Part shown: positions 8,644 to 30,981 of the stretch, piece after piece
Layout: each line of letters begins with the position of its first letter
Numbering within the stretch: the stretch's first letter is position 1
DNA from: a virus
Taxonomy: Duplodnaviria > Caudoviricetes
IMG/VR virus record: IMGVR_UViG_3300031861_000009
Coordinates: 1 to 34,184 of that record
Reading direction: 5' to 3' (one strand)
Length of the DNA: 34,184 nucleotides
Notes under the pieces: model-generated
What the model was told of the DNA's origin: nothing
The model's database searches: none
What the model saw: the letters and a program-made list of their open reading frames with translations, nothing else
Made by a program: the position numbers and the translations under genes

Positions 8644-11166
8644 ATGGCTCAACAAAATATCCCTGACAATTCAAACTTGAAAGTGTCAGCCGGAAAACCA
8701 TTGACTGCTGATTTGTGGAATCGTGTCATCGAGAGATTACCCAGCACGGATGCTGGGGCCGGCACTTCTGTTTCTCTAATCAACAAAACCGTTGTTCAAT
8801 GCAAGGCACATCGTGACATTGACATCGCAGAGGTGTTAGGTGTTTCATCGTATCTCGGTGTCGATGATGATGTATACGAGATCGCACCATCGCACATATT
8901 AGAATTGTCTGCGGTTGTTTGGCCGGATGACTGTCACCAAATTGTTATCGCTGAACGACCCGTGCTGACCGATGAGATTGGTCCGTTCGCGTATAACGGT
9001 GGTGCGATTGTAAACCTCGATCAATCATTGGCAGGTGATTACGCATTCCCTGATCCTGCTGACACAACTCAGATGAAGCGATCAACCAGCGGGTATCGAA
9101 TACTCAATCTGGTAAACACATCACAAGCGGTTGTTAGTCTCGGTGATACTCAGCCACTCTGGAAATACCAACTGACATCTGCGTATGCAGGCACGGCAAC
9201 AGGTCAGGCAAAAATTCTCACGTTGAATGATGGGGTGTTCAAAGGAACTCCGCAGACGATCAATTTTGCAGCCGATTGTAAACCTGATTCGCTTGACGTT
9301 GGGCATGTTGGTTATGTGGTGTTCGCCAATGGTGCATTTTGGGTAACTGATTTTTGCAGCACGGGTGGAACAGGAACACCCCGCATTCGATTCAAACTGA
9401 TCAACAAATTCAATGATACTGGTCAGGCTGATGCGGATGTTCTGGATACATTTGGGGAAACAGGTTTTGTTCGTGGCGATCCTGTTGTTGTGAATGATCC
9501 TCGGAAACTGTTTGCACATGCTATTGGTGAAAGCAATATAAACATCACGCCGAACACATACTTTCCCTGCGGTGGTTCAGTCGGTTATGCGGTGTTGACG
9601 CAGGCACCTGACATTGAACCACCGTCGACCGCTGATTATCCTCGATGGGAAGTTGAACAGTGTACGCAGACCATCGAGAAAATGAGGGTGTGGGTTTACG
9701 TTGACGATGCCAGCGGTGGACCACACCAACAGCCAACTGGTCAGACGGTGCCACCGGAGCCGAGCCTGACATTGTATTTCAGCAATCTGAATGCGGTGCA
9801 GTCACGTTGGCCCGATGTTGATTATTGCGAATCGTGGAGTGATTCAGGTGGTGGGTCAATCCCGTACACTTACAAAGTTGAGAATGTAACGAACCCGCAC
9901 CGATTTTCGGCAATAAGCGGTTCATGGTGCATCATTGAGAAAACAACATGGCCGCAGCGTGCGGAGGATTCATGTAATGATTTGACACCGTATGCCGGCA
10001 TGACTGGAATACCTGATGAATGGGTTATCACGGATGTTCAAAAACCACTGGCTAGATGGATCCGAGTTAAATACTTGCAAGACACCGATCCGAAATGGGA
10101 ATACGATAGCGAATTTGCGGAAGGTGATAGCCCGGTATTGTATTTCCCTCCTGCGATTCCTTTGAATACAAAAATACGAACCGCACCCGGCATGGTTACG
10201 GGATGCTTGATCGTAGGCGAAAAGGGTTGGGCGTTTTGGGATCCGAATGAGCAGTTTTATAATGTTGTGATGACAAATTCAGCGTTGTACGGATCACCTG
10301 TTGATGTGACTATCGTTGGAAAGATTGGAACCACCGATGATCCGATCACGGTTGCTGGTTGCGAGATTGAGTACAACAAAATTCACGAGATACCGATGTT
10401 CGGTATTAAACCATCCGAATGCACACCGGATGAAACTACCGTCACGCTCGCACTAGCAACCGAATCCATTGCAGTTGTCACCGGATACACGATTGATCCT
10501 GCGGACCCTACTGCGGTTTGCCTCAACTCGACAGTGATCTATGTTTGCAAAACTGAAACTGGTCCTGACCTGCCGTGTTTCGATGTTTGTGATCCATGCG
10601 AGCCAACTGGTTGTTGCCAATACCCACCGGGAACATACACGCCGGGAATGACGTTAAGTGAATGCGATGCAATTAGTGGTGATTGGGTTGAGGGTCCATG
10701 CCCCGAATTGTGTTTCGAGTGTTACGAATGCAACATTGGTTACGGCATCAAATTTGATCTGGACAACATATCGTGGGATGCTGCGGCAGCGACAAGCGGT
10801 TTTGCAGGGGGTGCAGATATTGCCACAGCAGTTTGGGCGAACCCAACATCAGGTAGTGATTGTTGTGCGAAATTGACTGTCACCTTTACGAATGTGCCTG
10901 CCGGCGGAACACTGACAGCAATACGTGTCGCAGAGGTTTGTATGCAATCATCTGCAACATGCTCGACCAGTCACGAGTTGGTTCTCGATTGGGACACTGC
11001 CACATTTGATGGTTGCACACTTCCGACTGTTCTCGGTTGTGTCACAAGCGGTTCGCCATGCGTTAATGAGTACGGTAACAACTCGCCTTGCATCGTTCCC
11101 ACCAATCCTTCGGGGACTGGTTCATGGGACGAGGTGGTCATTAACACTCTCGCGTGTGATCCATGA
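8644..11166 (+). CDS. Large tail tip / receptor-binding protein with Cys-rich C-terminus
   Basis: ~840 aa at the end of the tail module; KVSAGKPLTADLWN N-terminus; many Cys in the last third. Likely start ATG 8644. Confidence 0.55.
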   Translation: MAQQNIPDNSNLKVSAGKPLTADLWNRVIERLPSTDAGAGTSVSLINKTVVQCKAHRDIDIAEVLGVSSYLGVDDDVYEIAPSHILELSAVVWPDDCHQIVIAERPVLTDEIGPFAYNGGAIVNLDQSLAGDYAFPDPADTTQMKRSTSGYRILNLVNTSQAVVSLGDTQPLWKYQLTSAYAGTATGQAKILTLNDGVFKGTPQTINFAADCKPDSLDVGHVGYVVFANGAFWVTDFCSTGGTGTPRIRFKLINKFNDTGQADADVLDTFGETGFVRGDPVVVNDPRKLFAHAIGESNINITPNTYFPCGGSVGYAVLTQAPDIEPPSTADYPRWEVEQCTQTIEKMRVWVYVDDASGGPHQQPTGQTVPPEPSLTLYFSNLNAVQSRWPDVDYCESWSDSGGGSIPYTYKVENVTNPHRFSAISGSWCIIEKTTWPQRAEDSCNDLTPYAGMTGIPDEWVITDVQKPLARWIRVKYLQDTDPKWEYDSEFAEGDSPVLYFPPAIPLNTKIRTAPGMVTGCLIVGEKGWAFWDPNEQFYNVVMTNSALYGSPVDVTIVGKIGTTDDPITVAGCEIEYNKIHEIPMFGIKPSECTPDETTVTLALATESIAVVTGYTIDPADPTAVCLNSTVIYVCKTETGPDLPCFDVCDPCEPTGCCQYPPGTYTPGMTLSECDAISGDWVEGPCPELCFECYECNIGYGIKFDLDNISWDAAAATSGFAGGADIATAVWANPTSGSDCCAKLTVTFTNVPAGGTLTAIRVAEVCMQSSATCSTSHELVLDWDTATFDGCTLPTVLGCVTSGSPCVNEYGNNSPCIVPTNPSGTGSWDEVVINTLACDP

Positions 11167-11438
11167 GTAGATTGGGCGTTGGAGATTTGATTGCTAAATG
11201 GATTCCTGAGTGGATCCAAAAGGATCACGATATTGAATGTGACTGTAAGAAAGTGAAACAGGAATTGAACGCATCAATGCCTGATCAGATTGAACTACAT
11301 ATTCAATACTACATCGATCATTTCATAAACCAGAAACGTCATCTTCGTTTCGGTCTGAGATTGATACCAGACTTCATCTTGCGAATGTTCATTCGAGCAA
11401 TGATCAAAAAAGCAACGTCTCAAATACGACAATCTTGA
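11163..11438 (+). CDS. Hypothetical protein with CxC motif (tail-associated)
   Basis: ATGA overlap with the previous gene; GVGDLIAKWI...CDCKKVKQELN. Confidence 0.6.
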   Translation: MSRLGVGDLIAKWIPEWIQKDHDIECDCKKVKQELNASMPDQIELHIQYYIDHFINQKRHLRFGLRLIPDFILRMFIRAMIKKATSQIRQS

Positions 11439-11719
11439 AGTCGTATTCTGACCTTCTCGCTGACCTATCTTTCAGCCAACCCCCCTGTGGCTTTTGTATG
11501 GAAACAGGCTTGAAGTCTAGATTCTGAAAAGATTCTCTAAAAAAACTTTCCTCAGATAGCTTGCTCTGGATGGGTGTCCATTCAGGTCAATAAGCAGACC
11601 CCTAGAAATCTTTTACTAGGGGGCAGATTGGGATGGAACTAGACCCCTCTTTACTGTCTACTGGTTTAGGTGAAGGTTAGCTACCTTCACTAACTGATCT
11701 TTCTCAATCTATCTAACGC

Positions 11720-12223
11720 ACCCGGCAGTGATCTGAGCCGTCCGGGGATCGACCAACTCGCGGGGGAAGTAACCCCCTGAACTACGAGAGCGAGCTACTT
11801 CGAAACGCATAGCCTTTCAGAAGTATCTCAATCAGAGTCAGGGGATGAAAAGTCCACGAGCCAAAACCAAAACTTCATCTAGTTCCTTCTGGTGCGGGGA
11901 TGTTTGTTGCGGACAGTCGATCATAAACATTAACGTGTTGCGGGTAAGTCTTACGAGCCCCGACCGACCGCCGGATAAACATTTGCAATCGCAAGTGAGG
12001 CGGGTAGCCAAGGAACGTTCCTCGATTTGAGTTCCTCTGAACTACGAACAACAAACACAAGCCGCGAAGCCGCTTACTGTTTGAAGAACGAGTCAGAGAT
12101 TCAAATGATTCAGTCGAAGGTTAACGAAGGCTATGCTCAGTTCGAGCCAAACCAAACGCAACACCCTGACCTAGTCAGTAACTTTCGAGAGACAAGTCCT
12201 CTCGCGAGCGAACGCGGTCGGTC
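11720..12223 (+). ncRNA. Large (~500 nt) highly structured ncRNA candidate, class unknown
   Basis: No credible ORF; long-range complements 11747-54/12216-23, 11757-62/12203-08, 11807-16/12127-36 and 11901-09/12049-57; pseudoknot 11837-43/12164-70; many local hairpins; ends at a hammerhead cut site. The 5' boundary is uncertain. Confidence 0.65.
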
Positions 12224-12268
12224 GCATGGCACTGGTAGCCATGCCTGATGAGATACCTCGAAACCGAT
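12217..12268 (+). ncRNA. Hammerhead ribozyme, type III (HH1); predicted cut after C12223
   Basis: Stem III UCGGU/ACCGA, GUC site, stem I GCAUGGC/GCCAUGC, core CUGAUGA 12245-51, 2-bp stem II, GAAA 12260-63; loop I GGUA is complementary to loop II UACC. Confidence 0.85.
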
Positions 12269-12281
12269 AACAGGAAACACA

Positions 12282-12632
12282 ATGACGAATTCAAAAGTCA
12301 AACGACAAATCGAAAAAGCAACCGGCACCACAATCAAGCTGAGTTCATGGAAGTGCGACTCACACTACGAAGGACATGCAGAAGCATACGCAAATTGTGA
12401 GAAGGTTCGCTATCACACTGGCTACACGAAGTGGACAGGCGACATAGTTATGAAAGGAGAACAGTGGGAAGCCAAGACGAAGGAAGCAAGCAACAGGGGT
12501 AGCCTACTTGCTCTCGCAATCAACTTCGAACTGCACGACATCGCAGACGAGATCATCGCGACTATCGAAACGATACGCAATGTAGAACTCGCAGCATACT
12601 GCGGCGTCACTGACCTCAACCACCTCAACTAA
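12282..12632 (+). CDS. Hypothetical early protein
   Basis: 116 aa; CAGGA RBS right after HH1. Confidence 0.75.
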   Translation: MTNSKVKRQIEKATGTTIKLSSWKCDSHYEGHAEAYANCEKVRYHTGYTKWTGDIVMKGEQWEAKTKEASNRGSLLALAINFELHDIADEIIATIETIRNVELAAYCGVTDLNHLN

Positions 12633-12674
12633 CACAATCACTTTTAACAACACCAACACCAACCCCGGAGAACA

Positions 12675-12875
12675 ATGATGAAAGATACTACACGTTCAAG
12701 AATAAACGGCCAATGCAGTTGTGGCCGAAAGTTTGAAAAAGTAACGGTAGACAGAGTCGCAACTACCGTTTGCAAAAGGACATGCCGCAAGTGTGGAAGT
12801 AAATGGCAATTGATTTTCAAGCCAATGACGTTCAACGGCTTGACGACACAGTTGATGAGTGGAACTAAGGTATAA
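12675..12875 (+). CDS. Small Zn-finger-like protein
   Basis: CSCG...CRKCG; CCGGAG RBS. Confidence 0.7.
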   Translation: MMKDTTRSRINGQCSCGRKFEKVTVDRVATTVCKRTCRKCGSKWQLIFKPMTFNGLTTQLMSGTKV

Positions 12876-12922
12876 GAACGAACAACGTAACAACAACAAC
12901 AACAACAACGAGGAATAGAACG

Positions 12923-13141
12923 ATGATGCAAAAGTTAAATAAATGGATCGCTGATACTTTTCCGCACCTTGGAAAGATCGAACTCGTCAAAGGCAATGGC
13001 TACTTTTACTTTTGTGCGGATGACTGGCGGCTGGACATTCAGTCGATTGGCGTTTGTCACTTGAACCACGGAACGATTTACCAGTGGAAAACATGGATGG
13101 CCGACGAGATCAACGATGCAGTCAAAGACGCAAATCTCTAA
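12923..13141 (+). CDS. Hypothetical early protein
   Basis: (CAA)n leader plus GAGGA RBS; LVKGNGYFYF. Confidence 0.75.
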   Translation: MMQKLNKWIADTFPHLGKIELVKGNGYFYFCADDWRLDIQSIGVCHLNHGTIYQWKTWMADEINDAVKDANL

Positions 13142-13173
13142 TCCAACAACAACAACAACACCGGAGAACAAAG

Positions 13174-13713
13174 ATGATGACTTATACATCCAAGGGCGTA
13201 GCAAGAGCAATCGCAGCAGCGATAATCGCAGGAGCGGACACCAAAGCTGAAATGGCTAAAGACATATTGACGATACATGATTTGCTGCTTGAAGGTTCGA
13301 TGTGCATGGGAGAAGAAATCAGCGAGAACGAAATACATCACTGGGGTGATGGCAAGTATCAAGCACAGCAAGAGTTCATCGATGATCTTTCGCTTCACCT
13401 TGAAGCATTCGGTGAGGAACTATCGCGTGAAGAAAGTCAAGACGACAAAGATGAAGAGGTGGTAGAGATTAAGCCTATCAAGGTTGGAGACAAGCTAACT
13501 CTTGAAAGACATCCCGTACTGCATTCCAACTCAGTCGCTGCTTACAAGGTAACGACCAAGACAGTAACAAAGGTTAGTGAATGGTCTAACGGGACACCAG
13601 AGAAGTTCCATGTATCATTCAAAGGAATGAAGGGACGCTTCACGGTCAACACAAAAACGGGTTGGGTACATGGTGAAAAGTCACGCTACTGCATCATGGT
13701 CCCAGTCAAGTAA
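13174..13713 (+). CDS. Hypothetical early protein (acidic N-half, SH3-like C-half)
   Basis: Start reassigned to ATG 13174 behind the (CAA)n-CCGGAGA leader. Confidence 0.7.
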   Translation: MMTYTSKGVARAIAAAIIAGADTKAEMAKDILTIHDLLLEGSMCMGEEISENEIHHWGDGKYQAQQEFIDDLSLHLEAFGEELSREESQDDKDEEVVEIKPIKVGDKLTLERHPVLHSNSVAAYKVTTKTVTKVSEWSNGTPEKFHVSFKGMKGRFTVNTKTGWVHGEKSRYCIMVPVK

Positions 13714-13749
13714 TCACAATTCAATTCACATTCACACCGGAGAACGAAG

Positions 13750-13965
13750 ATGAGATTCTATATCAAATTCACTTTCTGCCCATCGCATACTACAGACCAG
13801 TACTTGAGAGGTGTTAGCAAGCGTCACGGAATACAGTGGACCGAGAACAAGAGTGAGGCAAAGACATGGGCTACCCGCAAGGGAGCAGAGAAGTATCACG
13901 CAAAACTGAGACTTACATTCTCATTCGTGAAAGCCGAATTTGGTAATCCCACCGAGTGCAACTAG
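13750..13965 (+). CDS. Hypothetical early protein
   Basis: CACCGGAGA RBS; 71 aa; AKTWATRKGAEK. Confidence 0.7.
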   Translation: MRFYIKFTFCPSHTTDQYLRGVSKRHGIQWTENKSEAKTWATRKGAEKYHAKLRLTFSFVKAEFGNPTECN

Positions 13966-14007
13966 CCATTACATCCTTTACAACAACAACAACACCGGAG
14001 AACAGTT

Positions 14008-14202
14008 ATGAAGTGTAGAACATGCAAAAGCAAGAAAGTCAACGACAGGAATCAATGCAAAGACTGCGGATTGGAAATCTGCATTCACACGGGCAAGAAC
14101 TTCGGCGGCAAAAGTTGGATGGACGAGGCATCGGTTCACCTGTGCGTGAAGTGCTGCAAGGTACGAGCGAGTAAGTGGTTGGAAGATAAGCGGAGCGTTT
14201 GA
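14008..14202 (+). CDS. Cys-rich Zn-finger-like protein
   Basis: CRTC, CKDC, CVKCC; (CAA)n-CCGGAG leader. Confidence 0.7.
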   Translation: MKCRTCKSKKVNDRNQCKDCGLEICIHTGKNFGGKSWMDEASVHLCVKCCKVRASKWLEDKRSV

Positions 14203-14235
14203 GTAAACAACAACAACAACAACGGAGACAGAATT

Positions 14236-14469
14236 ATGAGTAAGTATTACGTCTTGGTAGTGAAGGAATTTGAAGACGAAGCGTTTGGCATGGAGTTTGG
14301 TTGTTATGACCGAAACAACGTTCGGGACGAATTAGCCGACGTGAAGTACACCAACAAGATGAATGGTCATAAAGCGAAGTACGCGATTCTCACTTGCCAG
14401 AATGCAACGCAAGCCAGTATCGACGCTCGCGTTGCTGACTACAACAAGTGTGAACCGACAACCTTTTGA
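14236..14469 (+). CDS. Hypothetical early protein
   Basis: (CAA)n-CGGAGA leader; 77 aa. Confidence 0.75.
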   Translation: MSKYYVLVVKEFEDEAFGMEFGCYDRNNVRDELADVKYTNKMNGHKAKYAILTCQNATQASIDARVADYNKCEPTTF

Positions 14470-14472
14470 AGT

Positions 14473-14489
14473 GCGGATATTAAAAGCAG
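14473..14489 (+). promoter_or_regulatory. Repeated 17-bp intergenic motif GCGGATATTAAAAGCAG, copy 1
   Basis: Exact copy at 14797-14813; both sit right after a stop codon and before a CAA leader. Confidence 0.45.
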
Positions 14490-14521
14490 ACAGTTACAAC
14501 AACAACACCGGAGACAGAGTT

Positions 14522-14794
14522 ATGAGTAAGAAACAATTACCGAGGTACGGAGTTTTGATCGCTCGCTTCACTGTACGAGAATGGCAGAAGAACGGTTGTG
14601 CTATCACAGTGGAATCAAACTGCGGCGAGAAGTACATCTTGATGGCTGGTGACGCCTCGCGTGGTAATGATTTGAGTGAAGTGAAACGTGGCACGAAGAT
14701 TCACGTCCGAAACAACAGGCATCCTGTTGAGAAAACAACGCCTCGGCAAACCGTAGTCGCGACGAGTTGGTATGTAATCACGATAGACGACTGA
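14522..14794 (+). CDS. Hypothetical early protein
   Basis: Start ATG 14522 after GGAGACAGAGTT. Confidence 0.7.
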   Translation: MSKKQLPRYGVLIARFTVREWQKNGCAITVESNCGEKYILMAGDASRGNDLSEVKRGTKIHVRNNRHPVEKTTPRQTVVATSWYVITIDD

Positions 14795-14796
14795 TA

Positions 14797-14813
14797 GCGG
14801 ATATTAAAAGCAG
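14797..14813 (+). promoter_or_regulatory. Repeated 17-bp intergenic motif, copy 2
   Basis: Identical to 14473-14489. Confidence 0.45.
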
Positions 14814-14851
14814 CAAGTAACAACAACAACAAAACTACAGGAGACAGAGTT

Positions 14852-15088
14852 ATGATCTACGTGGTCAACTATTCCGGCGACTCGCGAGGCGAAACGAAAG
14901 AATACTTTGAGTGGTGTACGATATTCGGCACACGAAAGGAAGCAATCAAGTGTGCTAAAGCATTATGCAATGAACAGAACAAGCGTTTGAAGTATGTTCC
15001 TCTCGATAGCGAAGAACATTACACGGACTACGATGCAACCAACTACATCTGCGTTCAACAAAGTCTTCATTGGTCAAACGGTGCATAG
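14852..15088 (+). CDS. Hypothetical early protein
   Basis: GGAGACAGAGTTATG leader; IFGTRKEAIKCA. Confidence 0.7.
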   Translation: MIYVVNYSGDSRGETKEYFEWCTIFGTRKEAIKCAKALCNEQNKRLKYVPLDSEEHYTDYDATNYICVQQSLHWSNGA

Positions 15089-15098
15089 CACCACGCAA

Positions 15099-15159
15099 GT
15101 CGAAACGCCTTCGGGCGTCAGGGCAGGATGGCTACCTGTCCTCTGATGAGACAAGCCAT
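15099..15159 (+). ncRNA. Hammerhead ribozyme, type II (HH2); predicted cut after C15119
   Basis: GUC-GAAA; stem III ACGCC-UUCG-GGCGU; stem I AGGGCAGG/CCUGUCCU; CUGAUGA-GAC; loop I AUGGCU pairs with 3' AGCCAU (pseudoknot). Confidence 0.93.
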
Positions 15160-15181
15160 TTACTTTTACCGGAGAGATGAA

Positions 15182-15874
15182 ATGAAGATTGTTACAAACG
15201 TGAAGCGTATCGCTAGAAACATCCGATTCATTCTGACTGCTGATCTTGCTGATGAGTCAAAGGGTCAAACAAAACTTTGGAAGAAACATCAGATCCTTGA
15301 ACACAGCATCGAGAAATGTGAAAAGGTGGTTGAGGAATACGACATCAACATTGAAGAGGCTGTCAGTGTTCAGATGGACAATGTGGAATTCGAACACCAC
15401 ATTGAAGAGGCTCTTGACCGCATTGATTGGGACGAACAGTGTCAGGAGGCAATGAACAACTATGACAGTACAGAAGATATAAGGATTGCAATTCAAGATT
15501 ATGACATTGAATCCGATATTGAAGAACGAATCAGCGACACTGATTGGTCCACGCATATCGGAGATTTTCTGTCAAGCAAAGTGTTCAAGGATCTGTTGAT
15601 TGATTCAAGTGAGGATCCAATTGATGAAGCAATCCAAAAATGTGTTGACGCCTTCGACTTCTCAGACCTATCCGAAAGCATGAACGAGTCTGCAAGAGAA
15701 TGCATATCAGATATGTTGAACAAGAAACTATCGAAATGCCTCAAGGTACTTGCTGCCACTTTGGAGGTTGAAGATTTTGAAGATGAAGATGATGACGTCA
15801 AGTTAGCGTTGGACGCTCAGGACAAGAAAGCAGAGATTGATCTTGCAAGCGACCCGCTACTTACCATTCTGTAA
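15182..15874 (+). CDS. Highly acidic protein with ~13-aa helical repeats
   Basis: Start ATG 15182 after CCGGAGA; very D/E-rich. Confidence 0.75.
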   Translation: MKIVTNVKRIARNIRFILTADLADESKGQTKLWKKHQILEHSIEKCEKVVEEYDINIEEAVSVQMDNVEFEHHIEEALDRIDWDEQCQEAMNNYDSTEDIRIAIQDYDIESDIEERISDTDWSTHIGDFLSSKVFKDLLIDSSEDPIDEAIQKCVDAFDFSDLSESMNESARECISDMLNKKLSKCLKVLAATLEVEDFEDEDDDVKLALDAQDKKAEIDLASDPLLTIL

Positions 15875-15905
15875 TATCTAACACCACCAACACCGGAGAA
15901 CAAAG

Positions 15906-16184
15906 ATGACTACAGCAAAAGTTGAATATCTTTCAAAGCCAATTCTTGATACAAGGATTTCACGTCCACCAAATCCAAGGGCAGGAATGACCCAGTACGG
16001 TTATACGTCCGTCAAAGGATCAGCAACGCATTGGATGATCGTGGTTGATGGTCGTAAAACATGGCGTCGAGTTTGGGTTTTATGCTTCTCAAATTCTGCA
16101 TCACACTTCATTAACATTAACGGTGACCGATTCTACTTGAAGGAAAGTCAGATGGAACAAATTATCACAGGAGTTACAGAATGA
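15906..16184 (+). CDS. Conserved phage hypothetical protein
   Basis: CCGGAGA RBS; GRKTWRRVWVLCFSNSASHFI resembles a motif common in small phage early proteins. Confidence 0.75.
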   Translation: MTTAKVEYLSKPILDTRISRPPNPRAGMTQYGYTSVKGSATHWMIVVDGRKTWRRVWVLCFSNSASHFININGDRFYLKESQMEQIITGVTE

Positions 16185-16381
16185 GCATTCTATTCCCAGA
16201 AATCAAAGTCCAGTTAACTGGCACTGACGGAAACGCGTTTGCAATCATCGGAAAAGTAATGAAGGCACTCAAGCGTGCTAACGTTTCTAAAGATGATCGC
16301 GACAAATTCATGTCAGAAGTAATGAGCGGCGATTACGACCACGTTTTACAAACGTGTATGAATACCGTAACAGTCACATAG
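16181..16381 (+). CDS. Conserved phage hypothetical protein
   Basis: VQLTGTDGNAFAIIG...SGDYDHVL, a widespread small phage protein motif; AGGAG RBS. Confidence 0.8.
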   Translation: MSILFPEIKVQLTGTDGNAFAIIGKVMKALKRANVSKDDRDKFMSEVMSGDYDHVLQTCMNTVTVT

Positions 16382-16447
16382 TCGAAACGCTGGTCGCAAG
16401 ATCAGCGTCCACAAGATCACGCCCAACTTGTGCTGATGAGACAGGGC
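16381..16447 (+). ncRNA. Hammerhead ribozyme, type II (HH3); predicted cut after C16409
   Basis: GUC-GAAA; stem III CGCUGGUC-GCAA-GAUCAGCG; stem I CACAAG/CUUGUG; CUGAUGA-GAC; loop GCCC pairs with 3' GGGC. Confidence 0.93.
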
Positions 16448-16472
16448 AACACCTTTACACGGAGACAGAGTT

Positions 16473-17411
16473 ATGACTACGAAAACCATGAGTGACGTTC
16501 AGCTTGCTGTTAGAGCAACTATTGACGAGACATTCACGAGGGAAGTTATCAAAGTGCCGTTGGCAGGACCGGACAACATGCCTAGTCCGCACTATGGATT
16601 ATGTTTCGATGATGCTGAGGGTCGTGATGATTGGATGTCACCCACAGTCAAGAAGGGATACATACCACATACCAAAGAGGATGTATCAATGTTGGCTGAG
16701 ACAGTCGCGGCTGGACTTGACTTGGGGCTTGAGGATGTCCAGATCAGTTGTTTCTTCAAACCTCACAGGGGTCATAGAGTAGCTGTTCAGCCTACAAAGT
16801 CGTATCGAAAAGCATTGTGTTCAAATGAACTTGATACCATGTGGCCCAAGTTCATTATCAATGCTAACTACGGTGGTTCATTCACGGCTCAGTGTGGTAT
16901 GTATCGCGATGCTTGTTCAAACATGCAGATGATGAGAAGGGTTGAACATACGACTGTCCATCTCAGGCACGTTGGTAACTTCCGAGAAAACTTCGACGAT
17001 ACCGTACAGCAATGGCGGTCACTCGCAACGCGGTTTGATTCGATTATGGAAGTGGCTAACAACCTCAAAGAGACGAAGGTACGTGCTGCTGATTTCTACT
17101 CGGCTTTGTACCCCGCTCCGTCTGAGGCAGATACAGTAGCCAAGCACAATCGACACAAGACCAAACTTGAGTCGATGATGGCAAGGTTGTTGAAGGAACG
17201 GGATCAACTATTGGAACCATCGAATGATGTTGTTCGCTGCAATCTGTGGGAACTGGTGAATAGTGTCACTGGATGGGTGCAGCATGACAAACGTAAGACG
17301 AAAGATGGTAACAAATTGTCAGAGGTTGAAAAATCATTCCTCGGTGTTGCTGATCGTGAGTCAGACAAGGCATGGGACTACGCTTTCGACAACTCAATGT
17401 TGAGTGTGTAG
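16473..17411 (+). CDS. DUF932/DUF945-like protein
   Basis: 312 aa; NANYGGS..YRDACSN...HLRHVG and NLWELVNSVTGWVQH match the family's conserved pattern. Confidence 0.7.
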   Translation: MTTKTMSDVQLAVRATIDETFTREVIKVPLAGPDNMPSPHYGLCFDDAEGRDDWMSPTVKKGYIPHTKEDVSMLAETVAAGLDLGLEDVQISCFFKPHRGHRVAVQPTKSYRKALCSNELDTMWPKFIINANYGGSFTAQCGMYRDACSNMQMMRRVEHTTVHLRHVGNFRENFDDTVQQWRSLATRFDSIMEVANNLKETKVRAADFYSALYPAPSEADTVAKHNRHKTKLESMMARLLKERDQLLEPSNDVVRCNLWELVNSVTGWVQHDKRKTKDGNKLSEVEKSFLGVADRESDKAWDYAFDNSMLSV

Positions 17412-17421
17412 TGGACTGAAA

Positions 17422-17501
17422 CCTATGTGAAGCGAAACAGCACGTTCAAGCGTGCTGTCTGCGTAGCTGGTGCTGCGTATTGATGAGACAACCTACATAG
17501 G
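17422..17501 (+). ncRNA. Hammerhead ribozyme, type II, variant core UUGAUGA (HH4); predicted cut after C17459
   Basis: C-GAAA; stem III CAGCACG/CGUGCUG; GUC site; stem I UGCGUAGC/GCUGCGUA; core UUGAUGA (C3U); outer stem CCUAUGUG/UACAUAGG. Confidence 0.7.
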
Positions 17502-17521
17502 ACCAACAATGGAAAATTACA

Positions 17522-17725
17522 ATGACAAACTCCGTAAGAATCAAAATCACAATCACAGAGAATATGCAAACTGCGTTACGCAAGCAATCGTCTGCTACAG
17601 GAGTCACAGTGTCCAAGTACATACGGGACACGTTGTCGTACACGCTCGTAAATGTTGATAACAGTTACTCAGTACAAGAGGACATTCAAGTTGGTAGGCC
17701 AGTAGTACCCAAGGAGCAAGGCTGA
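17522..17725 (+). CDS. Ribbon-helix-helix DNA-binding protein
   Basis: VRIKITIT strand, then helix-G-x-T-VSKYIR helix, the CopG/Arc pattern. Confidence 0.65.
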   Translation: MTNSVRIKITITENMQTALRKQSSATGVTVSKYIRDTLSYTLVNVDNSYSVQEDIQVGRPVVPKEQG

Positions 17726-18189
17726 TGAGATATAAAATAATCCAAGCAGAGTCAATTCATCTATCTGAAATAATGGAGATTGAATATCTGGCTCAAGATT
17801 CATGCTTGAAAAACTTTTTCGGTTGTGAAGGGTCTGAAGAGTCGAGCAATACTGTTTTGATATACAAGGATTCCAAGGATAATGTTCTTGGGTACATCAT
17901 GTATTCATTAGGAGTCGATGACGATGAAAATGAATACTGCCTCATCACTAGGTTAGCTACACATCCTTCATGTTGGCGACGAGGTGTTGCAAGGGCGTTG
18001 GTTGGACAAGTGAAACAAATTGCAAGATGTATATCGTCCAAGAGCATACCGCTGAGACTTGTAGTGAGACTTGATCAAGCTGTTATTGGGTTTGATCATT
18101 GTTTGAGTAGGCTTGGATTTCAATTTGAGAAGTCCGCAGGATGTGTTTCAATTTACTATGTACCGGAGAATGAAAATGACAACGAATGA
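17725..18189 (+). CDS. GNAT-family acetyltransferase (RimI-like)
   Basis: ITRLATHPSCWRRGVARALV acetyl-CoA motif A; RLGF motif B. Confidence 0.75.
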   Translation: MRYKIIQAESIHLSEIMEIEYLAQDSCLKNFFGCEGSEESSNTVLIYKDSKDNVLGYIMYSLGVDDDENEYCLITRLATHPSCWRRGVARALVGQVKQIARCISSKSIPLRLVVRLDQAVIGFDHCLSRLGFQFEKSAGCVSIYYVPENENDNE

Positions 18190-18949
18190 AAATGAAACGA
18201 TCGATGACTACCACATGGACAGAGGATATATTTCATCGTCTGAAATCAAATGCTTTGATCAGGGTGCATCCATGTATGAATACAGGTACATCAGAGGTAA
18301 CAAAGCATATTCAAAATCGTTTGCGTTGGGATCACTTGTTCATGGACTATCGCTTGAGCCAGATATAGTGAGCGATGAATATGTGATTTGCCCTATCAAA
18401 GATCGAAGAACAAAAGCATACAAGGAATGGTTCAACGATTCTGACAAAACCAAGAAGGTTGTTATGCAGTCAGAATGGGATACTGCTTTGGACTGCACGA
18501 ATGCTTTGTATGAGCATAAGATTGCAGAATCAATTTTGACTGAATCAGGCCCAGTTGAATGTTCCTATCGTTTCAGATGGAATGACATACCTTGCAAGTT
18601 TCGTCCTGACAAGATCATTCCGTCTGCACACATTGTTGCAGACATTAAAACTTGTCAAGAGTGTACTCCATCGAAAGTCTATCAAGCTGTTCGAAACTTT
18701 AGTTACGGACTGCAAGCGGCACACTACCTGACCGGTGCTGAAATAGAATTTGAAGATTGGTTTGATTTCATATTTCTGTTCGTTGAAACCAAGCCACCAC
18801 ACAGAGTGCTTTGTTACAGAGTAGATGTTAACAGCATTGAAACTTTGAAAGATCGGTGGGGATTACTCGTGACCGAGCTTTACCAACGCAAGCGTACTGA
18901 TGACTGGACAGATGAAAATAACAATAACCTTTTGACACTGGAGATTTGA
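18176..18949 (+). CDS. RecE/exonuclease VIII-like PD-(D/E)XK nuclease (DUF3799-like)
   Basis: ISSSEIK, LGSLVH, KFRPDK, ADIKT and YGLQAAHY; upstream of recT. Confidence 0.85.
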   Translation: MTTNENETIDDYHMDRGYISSSEIKCFDQGASMYEYRYIRGNKAYSKSFALGSLVHGLSLEPDIVSDEYVICPIKDRRTKAYKEWFNDSDKTKKVVMQSEWDTALDCTNALYEHKIAESILTESGPVECSYRFRWNDIPCKFRPDKIIPSAHIVADIKTCQECTPSKVYQAVRNFSYGLQAAHYLTGAEIEFEDWFDFIFLFVETKPPHRVLCYRVDVNSIETLKDRWGLLVTELYQRKRTDDWTDENNNNLLTLEI

Positions 18950-18950
18950 T

Positions 18951-19745
18951 ATGACTACGAAGCAACTAAGTTTGAAGCAAAATTTAATGAGTGATGCTTT
19001 CAGAAGTAGGATTGACGCGGTGCTACCGAATCACTTGACTTCTGAACGCATGGTCGCAGTTGCATTGACTGCAATTACAAGGACGCCTGATCTTGCAAAG
19101 CCTGATGTTGACCAAGCAACGTTTTTCAAGTCAATGATGATGCTGAGTGAAATGGGATTAGAGCCAGATGGAACTCATGCCCATCTCATTCCGTTCTTCA
19201 ATAGTAGACGTCAGTGCCGCGAGGTGCAGTTGATCGTTGATTACAAGGGTCTTGTTCTACTTGCTGGAAGGGCAGGTTTCACAGTTCAGGCAAGAGTAGT
19301 TTATGAAGGTGATTCGTTTCACTACAACGGCCATGAAGTTATCACTCATGTCCCGCATTATCTCATCGGTGAAGATTCAGGTGACATTCTTGCATTCTAC
19401 TGCAAGGTTGAAGGGTCTAACCCAAATGAAGTAAGCACCCGATACGAGATGATGAGTAATGATGAAGTACAGAGGGTACGGAGTAAGTCCAGAGGTGGTG
19501 ACAGTGGTCCGTGGCGTGATCATTACATTGAGATGGGCAAGAAAACTGTGTTCAGGAGAGCGGCAAAATGGATTCCATTTGAACCGCACATTGGCCGTAG
19601 CATTCAAAGCGATGATGATACTCCATCATTCGCAAAGCCAAAGCCGATGACAGTTGACTCTACCTCTTTCAGGGCTATGCTTACTGAGTCTCATCAGGCA
19701 GAGGATGATGCGTCAGACACTTCTCCGGTGACATCTGACGAGTGA
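18951..19745 (+). CDS. recT: RecT single-strand annealing protein
   Basis: GLEPDG..AHLIPF, QLIVDYKGL and PW..HYIEMGKKTVFRRAAKWIP are RecT signatures. Confidence 0.92.
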   Translation: MTTKQLSLKQNLMSDAFRSRIDAVLPNHLTSERMVAVALTAITRTPDLAKPDVDQATFFKSMMMLSEMGLEPDGTHAHLIPFFNSRRQCREVQLIVDYKGLVLLAGRAGFTVQARVVYEGDSFHYNGHEVITHVPHYLIGEDSGDILAFYCKVEGSNPNEVSTRYEMMSNDEVQRVRSKSRGGDSGPWRDHYIEMGKKTVFRRAAKWIPFEPHIGRSIQSDDDTPSFAKPKPMTVDSTSFRAMLTESHQAEDDASDTSPVTSDE

Positions 19746-19762
19746 TTCCTACATAGCTTGGT

Positions 19763-19803
19763 AGCACCCCTTGAGAGTAAATGCTCAGGGGGTGCTTTTC
19801 TTT
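19763..19803 (+). terminator. Intrinsic terminator after recT
   Basis: 13-bp stem AGCACCCCTTGAG/CTCAGGGGGTGCT followed by a T-rich tail. Confidence 0.8.
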
Positions 19804-19938
19804 AGGTGTCTCTCGGATACCCCCCAGACCCTATCCTGCCCCCTAGATGGCACCTGAAATCAATCGGGATTATTCACGTGCGTGGTTAGCCATGTGTCAG
19901 GCTTATTTGCTCTATGGGCCTACAGGGACTCCACTCCC

Positions 19939-19982
19939 GAGAGGGGAACGGGGGATATGAGAGAGGGGAACGGGGGATATGA
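19939..19982 (+). repeat. Two tandem 22-bp direct repeats GAGAGGGGAACGGGGGATATGA
   Basis: Exact copies at 19939-19960 and 19961-19982 in a non-coding gap. Confidence 0.85.
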
Positions 19983-20323
19983 GCAAAGGGTTGGGGGGTG
20001 TTTACACAAAGCGTATCTGTAATATCTTTTGAGAACCAAGATTCAAATTCGTCCCCTGTAGTCACCGGCTGATAACCGGAGGGGTCGAATTTGAGTTTTG
20101 TTTGTCTCGCTGCCGACATAAATAGCAGCATCCGCGGGCGTCTGACTGCCGCCCGGCCGCAAGGGGCATCCCCCTTCCGTATCTTCTCGCCAAAGAATAG
20201 CAGCACCAATCTCAAACTGTTTGAGTGGGAGTGGACTTTCGAGTGTGACCCGCTTTGTTCTTCAAAGCAAGCTGGACCGTAGGGAATTTCTACACACTGT
20301 GATCTGTTCTTAACAAAACTAAC

Positions 20324-20367
20324 TACCCCATCCCCCTTTGGGGAAAGGGGTATTGGTTTTCTGTTTC
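20324..20367 (+). terminator. Terminator/attenuator-like hairpin
   Basis: TACCCC-AT-CCCC/GGGG-AAA-GGGGTA interrupted stem followed by TTGGTTTTCTGTTT, upstream of ORF 20392. Confidence 0.4.
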
Positions 20368-20391
20368 AAGTTTTCAAAACCGGAGTAAACA

Positions 20392-20703
20392 ATGTCAACT
20401 GCTTGGAAGCGTCACAAGACGCCCTATGTAAAGATGAACCGCAATAGTAGTGTTCGTCCAGAAGATCATCTTAATTTCAGTCCACCTAAACAATTTTCAT
20501 TGAGAGAGTTTGGTTATGGCCCTGAGTCCTGTGAAACATTCAACGCACCGGATGAGATAACAGCCGTAATGATGTTCGCAACGAAATTGAGAAATCAATC
20601 ACCCTATCCTGATCGAACATTGATCATCTTGCGGAAGAAAAACATCGGTGGTCATTGGGTTGTTAGCGATAATTCATCTCCACGATTCATAGGAGTGAAA
20701 TAA
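20392..20703 (+). CDS. Hypothetical protein
   Basis: CCGGAG RBS; 103 aa. Confidence 0.65.
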   Translation: MSTAWKRHKTPYVKMNRNSSVRPEDHLNFSPPKQFSLREFGYGPESCETFNAPDEITAVMMFATKLRNQSPYPDRTLIILRKKNIGGHWVVSDNSSPRFIGVK

Positions 20704-27796: not shown

Positions 27797-28459
27797 ATGA
27801 AAGTTTTAATGATTGGTGTTGACAAGCTCACGTCTCACCCACGAAATTACCGGGAACATCCAACTGACCAATTGGATCACATCAAGCAATCGCTCACTCA
27901 GTTCGGTTTCTATCGAAATGTTGTATCGACGAAAGGCAATGTGATTCTCGCTGGGCATGGAGTAGTCCAAGCAGCGAAGGAACTTGGTATCGAAAAGGTA
28001 CCAGTCATGCAAGTTGACTTGGAGCCAGAGTCGACGGCAGCGTTGAAGATACTTACGGGTGATAACGAAATAGCATCTCTCGGTATCATCGATGATCGCG
28101 AGCTAACCAATATGCTCAAGCAAATCCGTGATGAAGATGAACACGGACTTCTCGGCACGGGTTTCGATGATCAGGTGTTAGCCAATCTTGTAATGGTTAC
28201 ACGAACAGGAACAGAGGTTGAAGATTTCAACGCTGCCGCTGAGTGGGTGGGAATGCCTGAGTACGATAGCGAGGCTGAGGACACTTTTAAGTTGTTAATC
28301 AAGTTTGAGACACTCGATGAGAGAGTTGCATTCTTGAAAGAAAAGTGTGATATCGACAAGGCAACAGAGTTCAAAAATAATACTGCTGCCATCTGGTATC
28401 CTCCAAAGACACCACGAGATACTAAGTCAGTAGCATTCGATGATGCGGACAAGAAGTGA
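27797..28459 (+). CDS. ParB/Srx-like N-domain protein
   Basis: HPRNYREH..Q...IKQSL..FGF...ILAGHG..AAKELG; C-terminal EWVGMPEY...IWYP domain. Confidence 0.85.
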   Translation: MKVLMIGVDKLTSHPRNYREHPTDQLDHIKQSLTQFGFYRNVVSTKGNVILAGHGVVQAAKELGIEKVPVMQVDLEPESTAALKILTGDNEIASLGIIDDRELTNMLKQIRDEDEHGLLGTGFDDQVLANLVMVTRTGTEVEDFNAAAEWVGMPEYDSEAEDTFKLLIKFETLDERVAFLKEKCDIDKATEFKNNTAAIWYPPKTPRDTKSVAFDDADKK

Positions 28460-29364
28460 TAAAGCATCCAAGATACCCGATATACATTCCGAGCAAGGGA
28501 CGTTATGGACGAAGTGAAACTGCTCGCATGTTTGACAAATACGAGACACCCTATCGGGTTGTAGTTGAGCCACAAGAGGTTGACAACTATGCGAAAGCAC
28601 TCGGCAAAGACAAGCTAGTTGTTCTTCCTGAAAATGATCAAGGGTTGGTTTACGCTCGAAACTTCTGCAAGCAGCATTCAATTGATGAAGGGCATGAAAG
28701 ACATTGGCAGTTTGATGATGACATAAGAATGATGGGCCGCATGTATAAGCGTGAGCGAATCCAATGCAATTCATCAATAGCAATAAGTGCCGTAGAAGAT
28801 TTCATAGAGCGTTATGAAAATGTTGGCCTATGTGCATTCAACCATATTGGATTCCTTGGACCGCAACAAGCAGTTCCGCCATTCTATTTGAACACGCGAT
28901 GCTACACATGCTTTTGTATGTGGAACAAACTTCCGAACACATGGCGGTACAGATACAACGAAGATACAGATATGTCCTTGCAGGTTATTGCGGCGGGATA
29001 TTGCACGATCATGTTCAACGCGTTCTTCATGCAAACGTGTGACACGAACTATGGTGGTAAGGAATCAAAGGTTGAAGGTGGTCAACAAGCAGTGTATGCA
29101 GATGACGGACGACTGAAAATGTCGCGTGATCTTGAACGGCAATGGCCGGGTGTAGTAACTACTGAACGAAAGTTTGGTAGACCACAACACAAGATCAAAT
29201 CCAATTGGACCAAGTTTGATACTCAATTGATTCGAAAGAAAACTATTGATTTCGATGCTATGGAGAAGATAGATGAACTTGGAATGAAAATGATGACCGT
29301 TCAAGAAATCAAACACGATGACGTAAAACGAATACTCAAGGAGTATGAACAAGAGCATGGATAA
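28456..29364 (+). CDS. TAGT/GREB1-like GT-A glycosyltransferase (putative DNA-base glycosyltransferase)
   Basis: YPIYIPSKGR, ARN, HWQFDDDI, WRYRYNEDTDMSLQ and GG motifs of the phage TET-associated glycosyltransferase family. Confidence 0.8.
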   Translation: MIKHPRYPIYIPSKGRYGRSETARMFDKYETPYRVVVEPQEVDNYAKALGKDKLVVLPENDQGLVYARNFCKQHSIDEGHERHWQFDDDIRMMGRMYKRERIQCNSSIAISAVEDFIERYENVGLCAFNHIGFLGPQQAVPPFYLNTRCYTCFCMWNKLPNTWRYRYNEDTDMSLQVIAAGYCTIMFNAFFMQTCDTNYGGKESKVEGGQQAVYADDGRLKMSRDLERQWPGVVTTERKFGRPQHKIKSNWTKFDTQLIRKKTIDFDAMEKIDELGMKMMTVQEIKHDDVKRILKEYEQEHG

Positions 29365-30136
29365 CAATGTCAAGATCGTTGTTCCCTACGGCAATCAAAA
29401 ACAAGCGGAGAAGTTTGCTGAAGCATGGGGGGTGACGTGGGGTACTGACTATATGGTGTTCACTTACGATCGGCACAAGCAGGGGTGTGCCATGACAAAG
29501 AACGAAGGAATCAAGACTGCTGTAGCACAGGGTGCTGATACGATTGTTGTTTTGGACGATGATTGTTTTCCTACAAAAGAGCATCCAACCCTTCCTGATC
29601 TTACAGCTTCGCATCTGGAAGCACTTGAACCGCAGCAAGTAAAGATGTTCAAAGAGGTGACGTTTCCATTGTCGAGAGGAACGCCATACTTGAACCAAAA
29701 CAAAAACATGACATTGCCGGTAGCATGTTCGATGGGATTCTGGTCTGAGATAGGCGACTACTGTGCCGCGAGACAGCTTGCATTTGAAGGGCAAGACATG
29801 GAGTTCAAGCATGAGCCGATATTCCAGCAATACTTTCCATTGTGTGGAATGAACATAGCATTCCATCCTGAACAATGGTTGCCTTGGTGTTTGTTTATCG
29901 ACGTGAATCGGTACGATGATATTTGGATGGGTTGGCTATGGCAACGTGAAGCGTATCGAAAGAATCATTGTTTCGCTTTGAACGGACCAACAATACGTCA
30001 CTCAAGACAAAGTGATGTTTGGAAGAACCTGAAAATCGAAGCAGAGTATGCAAAGCAAAACGACACGCTTTGGCGTGAGATCGCTACTGCTGAATATGAA
30101 ACATACGACGATCTGAGGGGACTGCTACCTGTATGA
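29345..30136 (+). CDS. RGP/GT75-like (UDP-arabinopyranose mutase-like) GT-A protein
   Basis: LDDDCFP, SRGTPY, LCGMNIAF and RYDDIWMG parallel the plant RGP motifs DDDC, RGYPF, CGMNLAF and RYDDMWAG. Start 29345 or 29357. Confidence 0.7.
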   Translation: MNKSMDNNVKIVVPYGNQKQAEKFAEAWGVTWGTDYMVFTYDRHKQGCAMTKNEGIKTAVAQGADTIVVLDDDCFPTKEHPTLPDLTASHLEALEPQQVKMFKEVTFPLSRGTPYLNQNKNMTLPVACSMGFWSEIGDYCAARQLAFEGQDMEFKHEPIFQQYFPLCGMNIAFHPEQWLPWCLFIDVNRYDDIWMGWLWQREAYRKNHCFALNGPTIRHSRQSDVWKNLKIEAEYAKQNDTLWREIATAEYETYDDLRGLLPV

Positions 30137-30981
30137 GTAAACAACCGATCATTGATACCGCTGGGCTAGTGGATCAAATGAAACAAACAAATGACAATAG
30201 ACAGCTAACAGCTAGTCGGCAGTTTATGTTTACAAAGGTTGGACGTACCGCATCCGAGTCAATGCACCAAGAACTATTGGGGAACGTCAAAAACTATCTG
30301 AGGCTTGGTCGCGTCAGACAGTTGATTGAGTTTTACAGTACAGACAAGTCAGACAAATCATGGGATAGGGAAACAATAAACCTTTGCCATAATCATATTC
30401 CCATCAGGTCTATGATCGCAGGTGAATTGTTTTCGATGGACTGGTATCATTCGCTTTACAAATGGGGCGGGTGTCGGAATCCTTGGGACAGGCTGGTATC
30501 ATTCTGGCGAATCAAACAGTCAGACCAACGAGGTGCAGGGATAGCCGATAAATGCAACACGTTTGAAGAATTGGTTACAAGACTTGAGAACCATGAAGGA
30601 CGAAACTTCATTCCTGAAAGTAACAAGTACACAATTATGCAACCCATGTGGAGATGGTTGCTACCTGAGTTTGATTACATAACGAGATATGAGTGTTTGA
30701 AAACAGATTGGAAGGTTGTCACAAAGCAGTTGGGCATACCTGAATTGAAGTTGGAAAAACATAATTCATATCACAATCAAACAGATACCAAAAAGCGAAA
30801 GTCATACCTTGATTATTACGACAGTAGATTAGCCAAGAGGGTTGGCATACTATACAAGGATGATTGCAAGATATTCGGGTATGCTGACATTGAAGATCGA
30901 AAGCCATTTGATCAACTCCGAATAAAGAAATATCTCAAAACACATTGGTCAAAACTTGGATACAACGGAGCATCCCAGTAA
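30133..30981 (+). CDS. Sulfotransferase (Sulfotransfer_2-like)
   Basis: 5'-PSB-like KVGRTASES, 3'-PB RNPWDRLVS, DYITRYE.LK.DW, and YLDYYD...YKDD..IFGY. Confidence 0.8.
   Translation: MSKQPIIDTAGLVDQMKQTNDNRQLTASRQFMFTKVGRTASESMHQELLGNVKNYLRLGRVRQLIEFYSTDKSDKSWDRETINLCHNHIPIRSMIAGELFSMDWYHSLYKWGGCRNPWDRLVSFWRIKQSDQRGAGIADKCNTFEELVTRLENHEGRNFIPESNKYTIMQPMWRWLLPEFDYITRYECLKTDWKVVTKQLGIPELKLEKHNSYHNQTDTKKRKSYLDYYDSRLAKRVGILYKDDCKIFGYADIEDRKPFDQLRIKKYLKTHWSKLGYNGASQ

Follow-up and report, generated by a model that had tools for sequence, protein, structure and literature searches.

A strand complementary to a predicted phage hammerhead probably lies in local hairpins of a large conserved RNA, and its match to the ribozyme is probably incidental

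Does a large RNA at the head of a phage early region control the hammerhead ribozyme at its 3' end, or is it simply cut free by it? The question is raised by a 34,184-base virus record (the window, that is, the whole stretch of DNA analysed here), in which an 11-nt strand inside a long non-coding region is complementary to the strand of a type III hammerhead, HH1, that bears the predicted cleavage site. The record has direct terminal repeats, is given a CheckV completeness of 45 and encodes portal, capsid, tape measure, RecE/RecT-like and terminase proteins; its sequence was found in marine metagenome runs, and genome scans identified no host. The RNA locus is an 843-base gap between the last tail-region gene (ending at 11438) and the first small early gene (starting at 12282). 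No promoters were found by scans of 11400-12400 and no plus-strand terminator-like site between 11000 and 18072; the early block ends with the one strong site of this kind, at 19763-96.

We examined the ribozyme against the hammerhead core consensus (CUGANGA, GAAA and UH). The HH1 core is in type III order and invariant in three of three sequences (the window and two homologous loci, L045 and L046), with a predicted cut after C12223. All six pairs of stem III are kept, as are the seven of stem I, where one pair is changed on both sides; stem II has 1 bp in the homologs and 2 bp in the window, and a contact between loops I and II (12234-36/12255-57) keeps 3 bp, one of them with a two-sided change, a fourth pair being present only in the window. 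HH1 matched Rfam RF00008 neither at the gathering threshold nor at E up to 10. Read from its sequence, HH1 is a new member of the known hammerhead family, with self-cleavage predicted. The window holds four hammerhead-type elements, each just 5' of an early ribosome-binding site (Table 1), and related ones occur in G001 and G002.

In the available part of PMC3088659, very short stems II and loop-loop contacts are described in active bacterial hammerheads, and clustered prophage hammerheads flank single genes, all of them being cleaved in three tested arrays; such clusters have been proposed to split long transcripts into gene-sized pieces (PMC3088659; also PMC6765202, likewise as available in part). 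HH1 shares with RF00008 and these prophage type III hammerheads the core, the GUC, the three stems, the very short stem II and the loop-loop pairing, and in the window as in the prophage clusters several copies stand before single genes. It differs in scoring below the Rfam thresholds and in forming the 3' end of a 500-nt covarying RNA, an arrangement that the available part of PMC3088659 does not describe. Hammerheads were also seen in unrelated phages. In one (L094, about 1220-1560 on the minus strand; L095 is identical) the first early gene is preceded by a type III hammerhead whose stem I starts in a similar way, 3' of a GC-rich leader of ~280 nt in which a profile search found no likeness to the large RNA; a 169-kb phage contig (L092, about 1480-1545) has a type II hammerhead-like element between two genes.

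The RNA upstream of HH1, about 500 nt long, is non-coding, covaries and is conserved together with the hammerhead. L045 and L046 carry the whole block 11674-12276, with 68% identity over about 650 columns; they are nearly alike and in effect one lineage, so that the comparison spans two independent lineages including the window. The block is one of five long stretches that can be aligned as DNA across 11400-20500, and its conservation at the DNA level is close to that of the RecT and DUF932 genes and unlike that of most small early genes. Relatives have a different gene 3' of the hammerhead, and the likeness of the X8 contig stops at 12276. No plus-strand ORF of at least 40 aa lies inside the matching stretch of L045, and a coding reading was dropped, the 61- and 73-aa ORFs of the window having no counterpart in L045.

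A hand-built model of 106 pairs, which includes the local hairpins A and B and an intact hammerhead, has 17 pairs changed on both sides, 2 on one side and 2 broken, a count biased towards the model since it was drawn from the same three sequences, two of them nearly alike. Its score was reached in 0/500 column shuffles and no slid control came near, and its G.U pairs read correctly on the plus strand. It includes two 65-nt repeats, modules 1 and 2 (Table 1). Group I or II introns, RNase P, twister and K-turn were compared by eye with consensus features and dropped, with no support from Rfam. In an RNA run (X7; one study, with possible DNA in the library), four assembled contigs fall on 11000-13000 (11782-11932, 12018-12168, 12232-12404 and 12504-12654); none of these contigs crosses the predicted cut, and the deepest starts 8 nt 3' of it. 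We set these contigs aside as evidence for or against cleavage.

Table 1. Features of the RNA locus and of the early region of the window. Two-sided and one-sided refer to pairs changed on both sides or on one side.
Feature	Coordinates	Strand	Description
Conserved non-coding block	11674..12276	+	Large structured RNA, hammerhead and ribosome-binding site; 68% identity to L045/L046
Small invariant hairpin at 5' edge of block	11674..11686	+	RNA hairpin or DNA site; 4/4 pairs invariant
First hairpin	11721..11746	+	11721-25/11742-46 and 11726-28/11733-35; 1/5 pairs two-sided
Domain closed by helix 11747-53/11916-22	11747..11922	+	4/7 pairs two-sided; probability 0.97-1.00 in homologs
Repeated module 1	11777..11840	+	Long irregular hairpin, bulged base helix, CGC-nnA-GCC tip; upper stem 4/11 pairs two-sided
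Local hairpin A	11934..11966	+	11934-45 with 11957-66; contains 5' half of flagged strand; of 10 pairs, 1 two-sided (11934-11966), 1 one-sided (11945-11957), 0 broken
Flagged 'anti-ribozyme' strand	11961..11971	+	Perfect complement of 12214-24; overlaps hairpins A and B
Local hairpin B	11968..12003	+	11968-72 with 11999-12003; contains 3' half of flagged strand; 5/5 pairs invariant
Repeated module 2	12035..12098	+	3/12 pairs differ on both sides from module 1; 72/72 cells paired
Strand complementary to 11935-42 (8 bp)	12157..12164	+	8/8 pairs invariant, none covarying; probability 0.28-0.66
Last hairpin before ribozyme	12181..12209	+	Invariant 7-nt loop; 4/10 pairs two-sided, 1 broken
Type III hammerhead HH1	12217..12268	+	Stem III 12217-22/12263-68, stem I 12224-30/12238-44, core 12245-51 and 12260-63
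First early ORF	12282..12632	+	116 aa, no family
Type II hammerhead before early gene	15098..15160	+	RF02276 28.1 bits, E 0.019, below gathering score 37; also in G001 and G002
Type II hammerhead-like element before DUF932 gene	16381..16448	+	Read from sequence; not listed by Rfam at E up to 1
Type II hammerhead before early gene	17430..17497	+	U for first core C; RF02276 29.7 bits, E 0.0075, below gathering score

The RNA was found in three phage contigs and one read-level variant. Its two homologs came from a capsid-led viral scan of four loci, in which L047 ends before the RNA and L048 is without it. Other protein-led viral scans gave 8 loci, none with the RNA, and 2 loci, both already known. 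Viral pattern scans returned 13 and then 22 hits, none related; 2 hits, both known phages; 21 hits, 2 known and 19 unrelated; and 5 hits, comprising 2 known and 3 unrelated phage hammerhead loci, two of which are identical. A metagenome scan gave 20 hits (2 known phages, 2 identical to the window over 3.3 kb, 16 unrelated), and of the genome scans one yielded no relative and another 13 hits, all unrelated. All of these scans require exact motifs or close peptides, such that distant relatives could escape them.

Among GenBank phages the only match was one of 37 nt (E 0.7). A model of the module, run against the window and 97 of 115 loci, exceeded 28 bits only for its 6 training copies, and its weaker matches are loci that had been selected through the same motif; it matched 0/5 further phage records, and none of 12 loci matched a sequence model built from the 3' half of the RNA. 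Rfam gave no match for the window at gathering level, one chance hit for the 843-base gap at E up to 10, and no family for the large RNA of either the window or L045 at E up to 10. Strings of the RNA motifs were found neither in full-text literature nor in the searchable supplement of PMC10690425 (files 1, 2 and 4 aside).

The preliminary description of this locus had pointed to 11961-71 as a perfect complement of 12214-24, and this is exact: the two strands are reverse complements, and 12214-24 covers the 5' strand of stem III together with the GUC (12221-23) of HH1. It is the longest perfect inverted repeat in 11400-12320. A perfect complement of at least 11 nt to 12208-12230 arose in 5/5000 dinucleotide shuffles of 11718-12207, any inverted repeat of at least 11 in 26/1000 shuffles of 11718-12280, and the energy of the window duplex (-24.1 kcal/mol) was equalled in 1/1000 shuffles. 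The eleventh pair involves G12224, which lies 3' of the predicted cut, hence only ten pairs are possible in the released RNA. The other three hammerheads of the window have no upstream complement longer than 7 nt.

A third partner for the hammerhead strand had also been proposed at 11747-54. In the window an 8-bp pairing with one G.U is indeed possible there (-14.6 kcal/mol), but it fails in both homologs, being broken at 2/8 pairs in L045 (-3.3 kcal/mol) and 3/8 in L046 (-1.8 kcal/mol). The three mutually exclusive partners thus reduce to two, since 11747-53 covaries with 11916-22 (4/7 pairs two-sided).

Ten of the 11 pairs of the flagged helix are unchanged in the homologs, one is broken and none is compensatory: G11966 is U in both L045 and L046 while its partner is unchanged, which places a U.C mismatch in the centre of the helix. 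The same change fits hairpin A, in which C11934 to A accompanies G11966 to U and turns a C-G pair into A-U; elsewhere in hairpin A a U.G becomes a U-A. This support for hairpin A consists of one compensatory pair, at a helix end next to a variable region. Hairpin B has a predicted probability of 0.93-0.98 in the homologs and 0.31 in the window, and its loop takes insertions, namely a 20-nt hairpin insert present only in the lineage of the window and a 2-nt insertion at 11986 in runs X8/X9. These two runs hold a closer variant, in which no change is listed in either flagged strand. Another insertion, a hairpin of 32 nt at 12152 in runs X8, X9 and X15, has 13 bases in common with the early ORF region of the window near 17663 (about 17663-17675).

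In L045 the duplex is of chance strength (-18.0 kcal/mol, equalled in 143/1000 shuffles), although a match of 10 of 11 is uncommon there (15/300 shuffles). Conservation of the pairing is thus not confirmed: ten of 11 pairs are invariant, but the sole change breaks the helix and nothing covaries. Across two lineages, a comparison of low power, the blocking helix shows no compensatory changes of the kind that would mark a gated ribozyme. A switch nevertheless keeps some standing, because only two lineages are compared, ten of 11 pairs do not vary, and a switch would in any case require alternative local hairpins.

Folding of the window precursor assigns a mean probability of 0.58 to the 11-bp helix and of 0.35 to pairing with 11747-54; when helices are forced, the blocked state lies about 7 kcal/mol below the best hammerhead-active state. 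The probability of the 11-bp helix is 0.00 in L045 and L046, where the blocked state is within 0.2 kcal/mol of the active state with A and B and within about 2 kcal/mol of the best active state. The gap between blocked and active states thus depends on the lineage (7 kcal/mol in the window versus about 0 to -2 kcal/mol in the homologs), in energies that include neither pseudoknotted states nor the tertiary contacts of the hammerhead, which would favour the active state. Stem III is predicted to be blocked in the window and in both homologs, each time by different strands, and shuffled upstream sequence blocks it too, in 33/60 and 43/60 trials, so that predicted blocking by itself says little. 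The earlier proposal that folding of the large RNA gates cleavage has some support in the predicted fold of the window, where the blocking helix is favoured, and loses ground in the homologs, where it is not, and in the shuffle control.

Altogether, we consider it probable that the flagged strand belongs to the local hairpins of a conserved RNA of ~500 bases, that HH1 cuts without regulation and releases this RNA, and that the 11-bp match is incidental. Hairpins A and B would form ~250 nt before the hammerhead strand appears and would leave only A11967 free; with A and B formed first and that single base exposed, capture of the hammerhead strand should be slow. HH1 would then cut constitutively, during transcription, after C12223, giving the large RNA a cyclic-phosphate 3' end and the early message a new, hairpin-capped 5'-OH end 58 nt before the start codon. 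From its anatomy, we would guess that the released RNA most likely acts alone, like GOLLD and ROOL in kind, and that its two modules may be repeated docking sites for a protein or RNA partner. The match itself would be a coincidence of two GC-rich strands, each conserved for other reasons, and at most would lower the cleavage yield of this lineage. The gene that follows the hammerhead varies among relatives, which fits general processing better than gene-specific control.

The alternative closest to the preliminary description is a two-state switch, which we regard as unlikely. Here 12157-64, once transcribed, would pair with 11935-42. This helix is an alternative to hairpin A; by opening the lower half of A it would release the flagged strand and expose 11961-67, shortly ahead of synthesis of the hammerhead strand, as a toehold able to capture that strand before stem III closes. 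By shifting the balance, a ligand, protein or RNA partner of the large RNA would determine what share of the early message is cleaved. Invariance extends to all eight pairs of 11935-42/12157-64 and to ten of the 11 in the flagged helix, in both homologs no more than about 2 kcal/mol separates the blocked from the active state, and the match, rare in the window (5/5000 shuffles; 1/1000 by energy), falls exactly on the cleavage strand; HDV RNA also offers a precedent, in which competing folds with upstream sequence reduce the yield of the ribozyme (PMC2396440, as available in part). Against this, neither helix covaries, the flagged helix is broken by the one change that falls in it, formation of both helices at once would involve a pseudoknot, the energy gap is lineage-dependent, the downstream gene is not fixed and the other hammerheads are without such a strand. 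A more elaborate version, a conformationally gated hammerhead with two tandem sensing modules, in which the fold with A and B would be the on state and the fold with 11935-42/12157-64 and 11961-71/12214-24 the off state, the flip between them determining how far the early message is processed, seems to us distinctly unlikely.

Instead of preceding cleavage, the helix might form only after it, as the preliminary description had suggested in proposing a refold into the mature RNA: ten pairs (11962-71/12214-23) would tuck in the new 3' end, close the mature RNA and pull it off the ribozyme. With the covarying core fixed this is the best state of the 5' product of the window, 3 kcal/mol below the next; hairpins A and B would have to open, however, for the 5' products of L045 and L046 the energies count against the helix by about 6 and 9 kcal/mol, and its probability is 0.00 in the homologs and 0.10 in the unconstrained product of the window at 37 C. 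These values weigh against the refold, and we hold the post-cleavage helix to be very unlikely. A last reading also takes the match as incidental and has the large RNA act in cis on the transcribing polymerase, in the manner of put, before the hammerhead removes it. The large RNA does precede the early genes and contains repeated hairpin modules, and put RNA alone suppresses pausing and termination in early phage genes (PMC9378689, in its available part). Yet cleavage 58 nt 5' of the first gene would separate the RNA from the transcript still being made, the plus strand shows no terminator-like site in 11000-18072 that such an activity could act on, the strong site at 19763-96 ends the early block, and Rfam scans showed no likeness to put. 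We find this reading highly improbable.

The boldest form of the gated hammerhead would take host tRNA or tRNA fragments as its signal, an idea suggested by complementarity in the modules: the invariant 5' strand of both (11777-11786 and 12037-12046) is the reverse complement of the start of the tRNA D-arm. Many of the chance matches in our scans are antisense tRNA genes that share this complement of the D-arm with the modules. On the minus strand of the homologs, the stretch from A and B to module 2 has a T-arm-like motif at a tRNA-like distance, seen in 8 and 11 of 3000 shuffles and noticed after the fact. A reverse-complement tRNA at 11935-12050, with D-arm-like and T-arm-like motifs in order in the homologs, is a lead at most: the order of motifs is absent in the window and no tRNA model matches. 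RF00005 matched 0/3 genomes at E up to 10, no tRNA genes were found in G000, G001 or G002, and ARAGORN reported none at the 90% threshold, with inconsistent pseudogene calls only at 80% and 70%. An unrelated locus, L024, has 15 copies of a 9-base word that matches the start of the module, possibly as a repeat array.

Other elements of the window were recorded in passing. A 17-nt inverted repeat lies upstream of the conserved block (11592-11629); at the corresponding place the homologs show instead a short direct repeat that includes a G run. Between 12640 and 15910, most small early genes are preceded by runs of ACA repeats and then by one common short ribosome-binding motif, in the manner of a shared translation enhancer. 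Beyond the terminator-like site at 19763-96, a second conserved non-coding block (20095-20300; L112 7130-7329) has 78% identity to G001/G002 and could represent a further structured RNA or else a DNA site, for example an origin. ParB-like, TET-associated glycosyltransferase, RGP-like and sulfotransferase genes occupy 27797-30981, a gene block that suggests DNA base modification.

Three known systems help to place the locus. GOLLD and ROOL, with the Rfam accessions RF02032 and RF03087, are abundant, stable and multimeric and are often near tRNA genes, and no tRNA occurs in G000, G001 or G002; unlike them, the window RNA has no Rfam match, ends in a hammerhead and contains two tandem modules. 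The put RNA of HK022 measures about 70 nt; the window RNA is far larger, is followed by a predicted self-cleavage site, and no early terminators were found that would need it. Like put, it is structured and stands first in an early phage transcript (available part of PMC9378689), and like GOLLD and ROOL, it is large, highly structured, non-coding, phage-encoded and of unknown function, these two being thought to work on their own as RNAs (available part of PMC12286853). The HDV antigenomic ribozyme with AltP2 likewise has an upstream strand able to pair with a ribozyme strand, set against a local hairpin; its effect was measured (PMC2396440, as available in part), whereas in the window the effect is predicted for one lineage only, with the strand 250 nt away and the pairing imperfect in relatives. 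A literature search of titles and abstract openings named no natural allosteric hammerhead.

What large ornate phage RNAs do is not settled, and phage hammerheads have a role that is largely assumed. The locus unites both, as an uncatalogued covarying RNA whose 3' end is predicted to be set by its own ribozyme, and its lineages differ naturally by one base exactly in the proposed switch helix. Gating, if true, would make HH1 a rare natural hammerhead controlled by an attached RNA domain; if gating is false, structural studies still gain a new candidate in the RNA.
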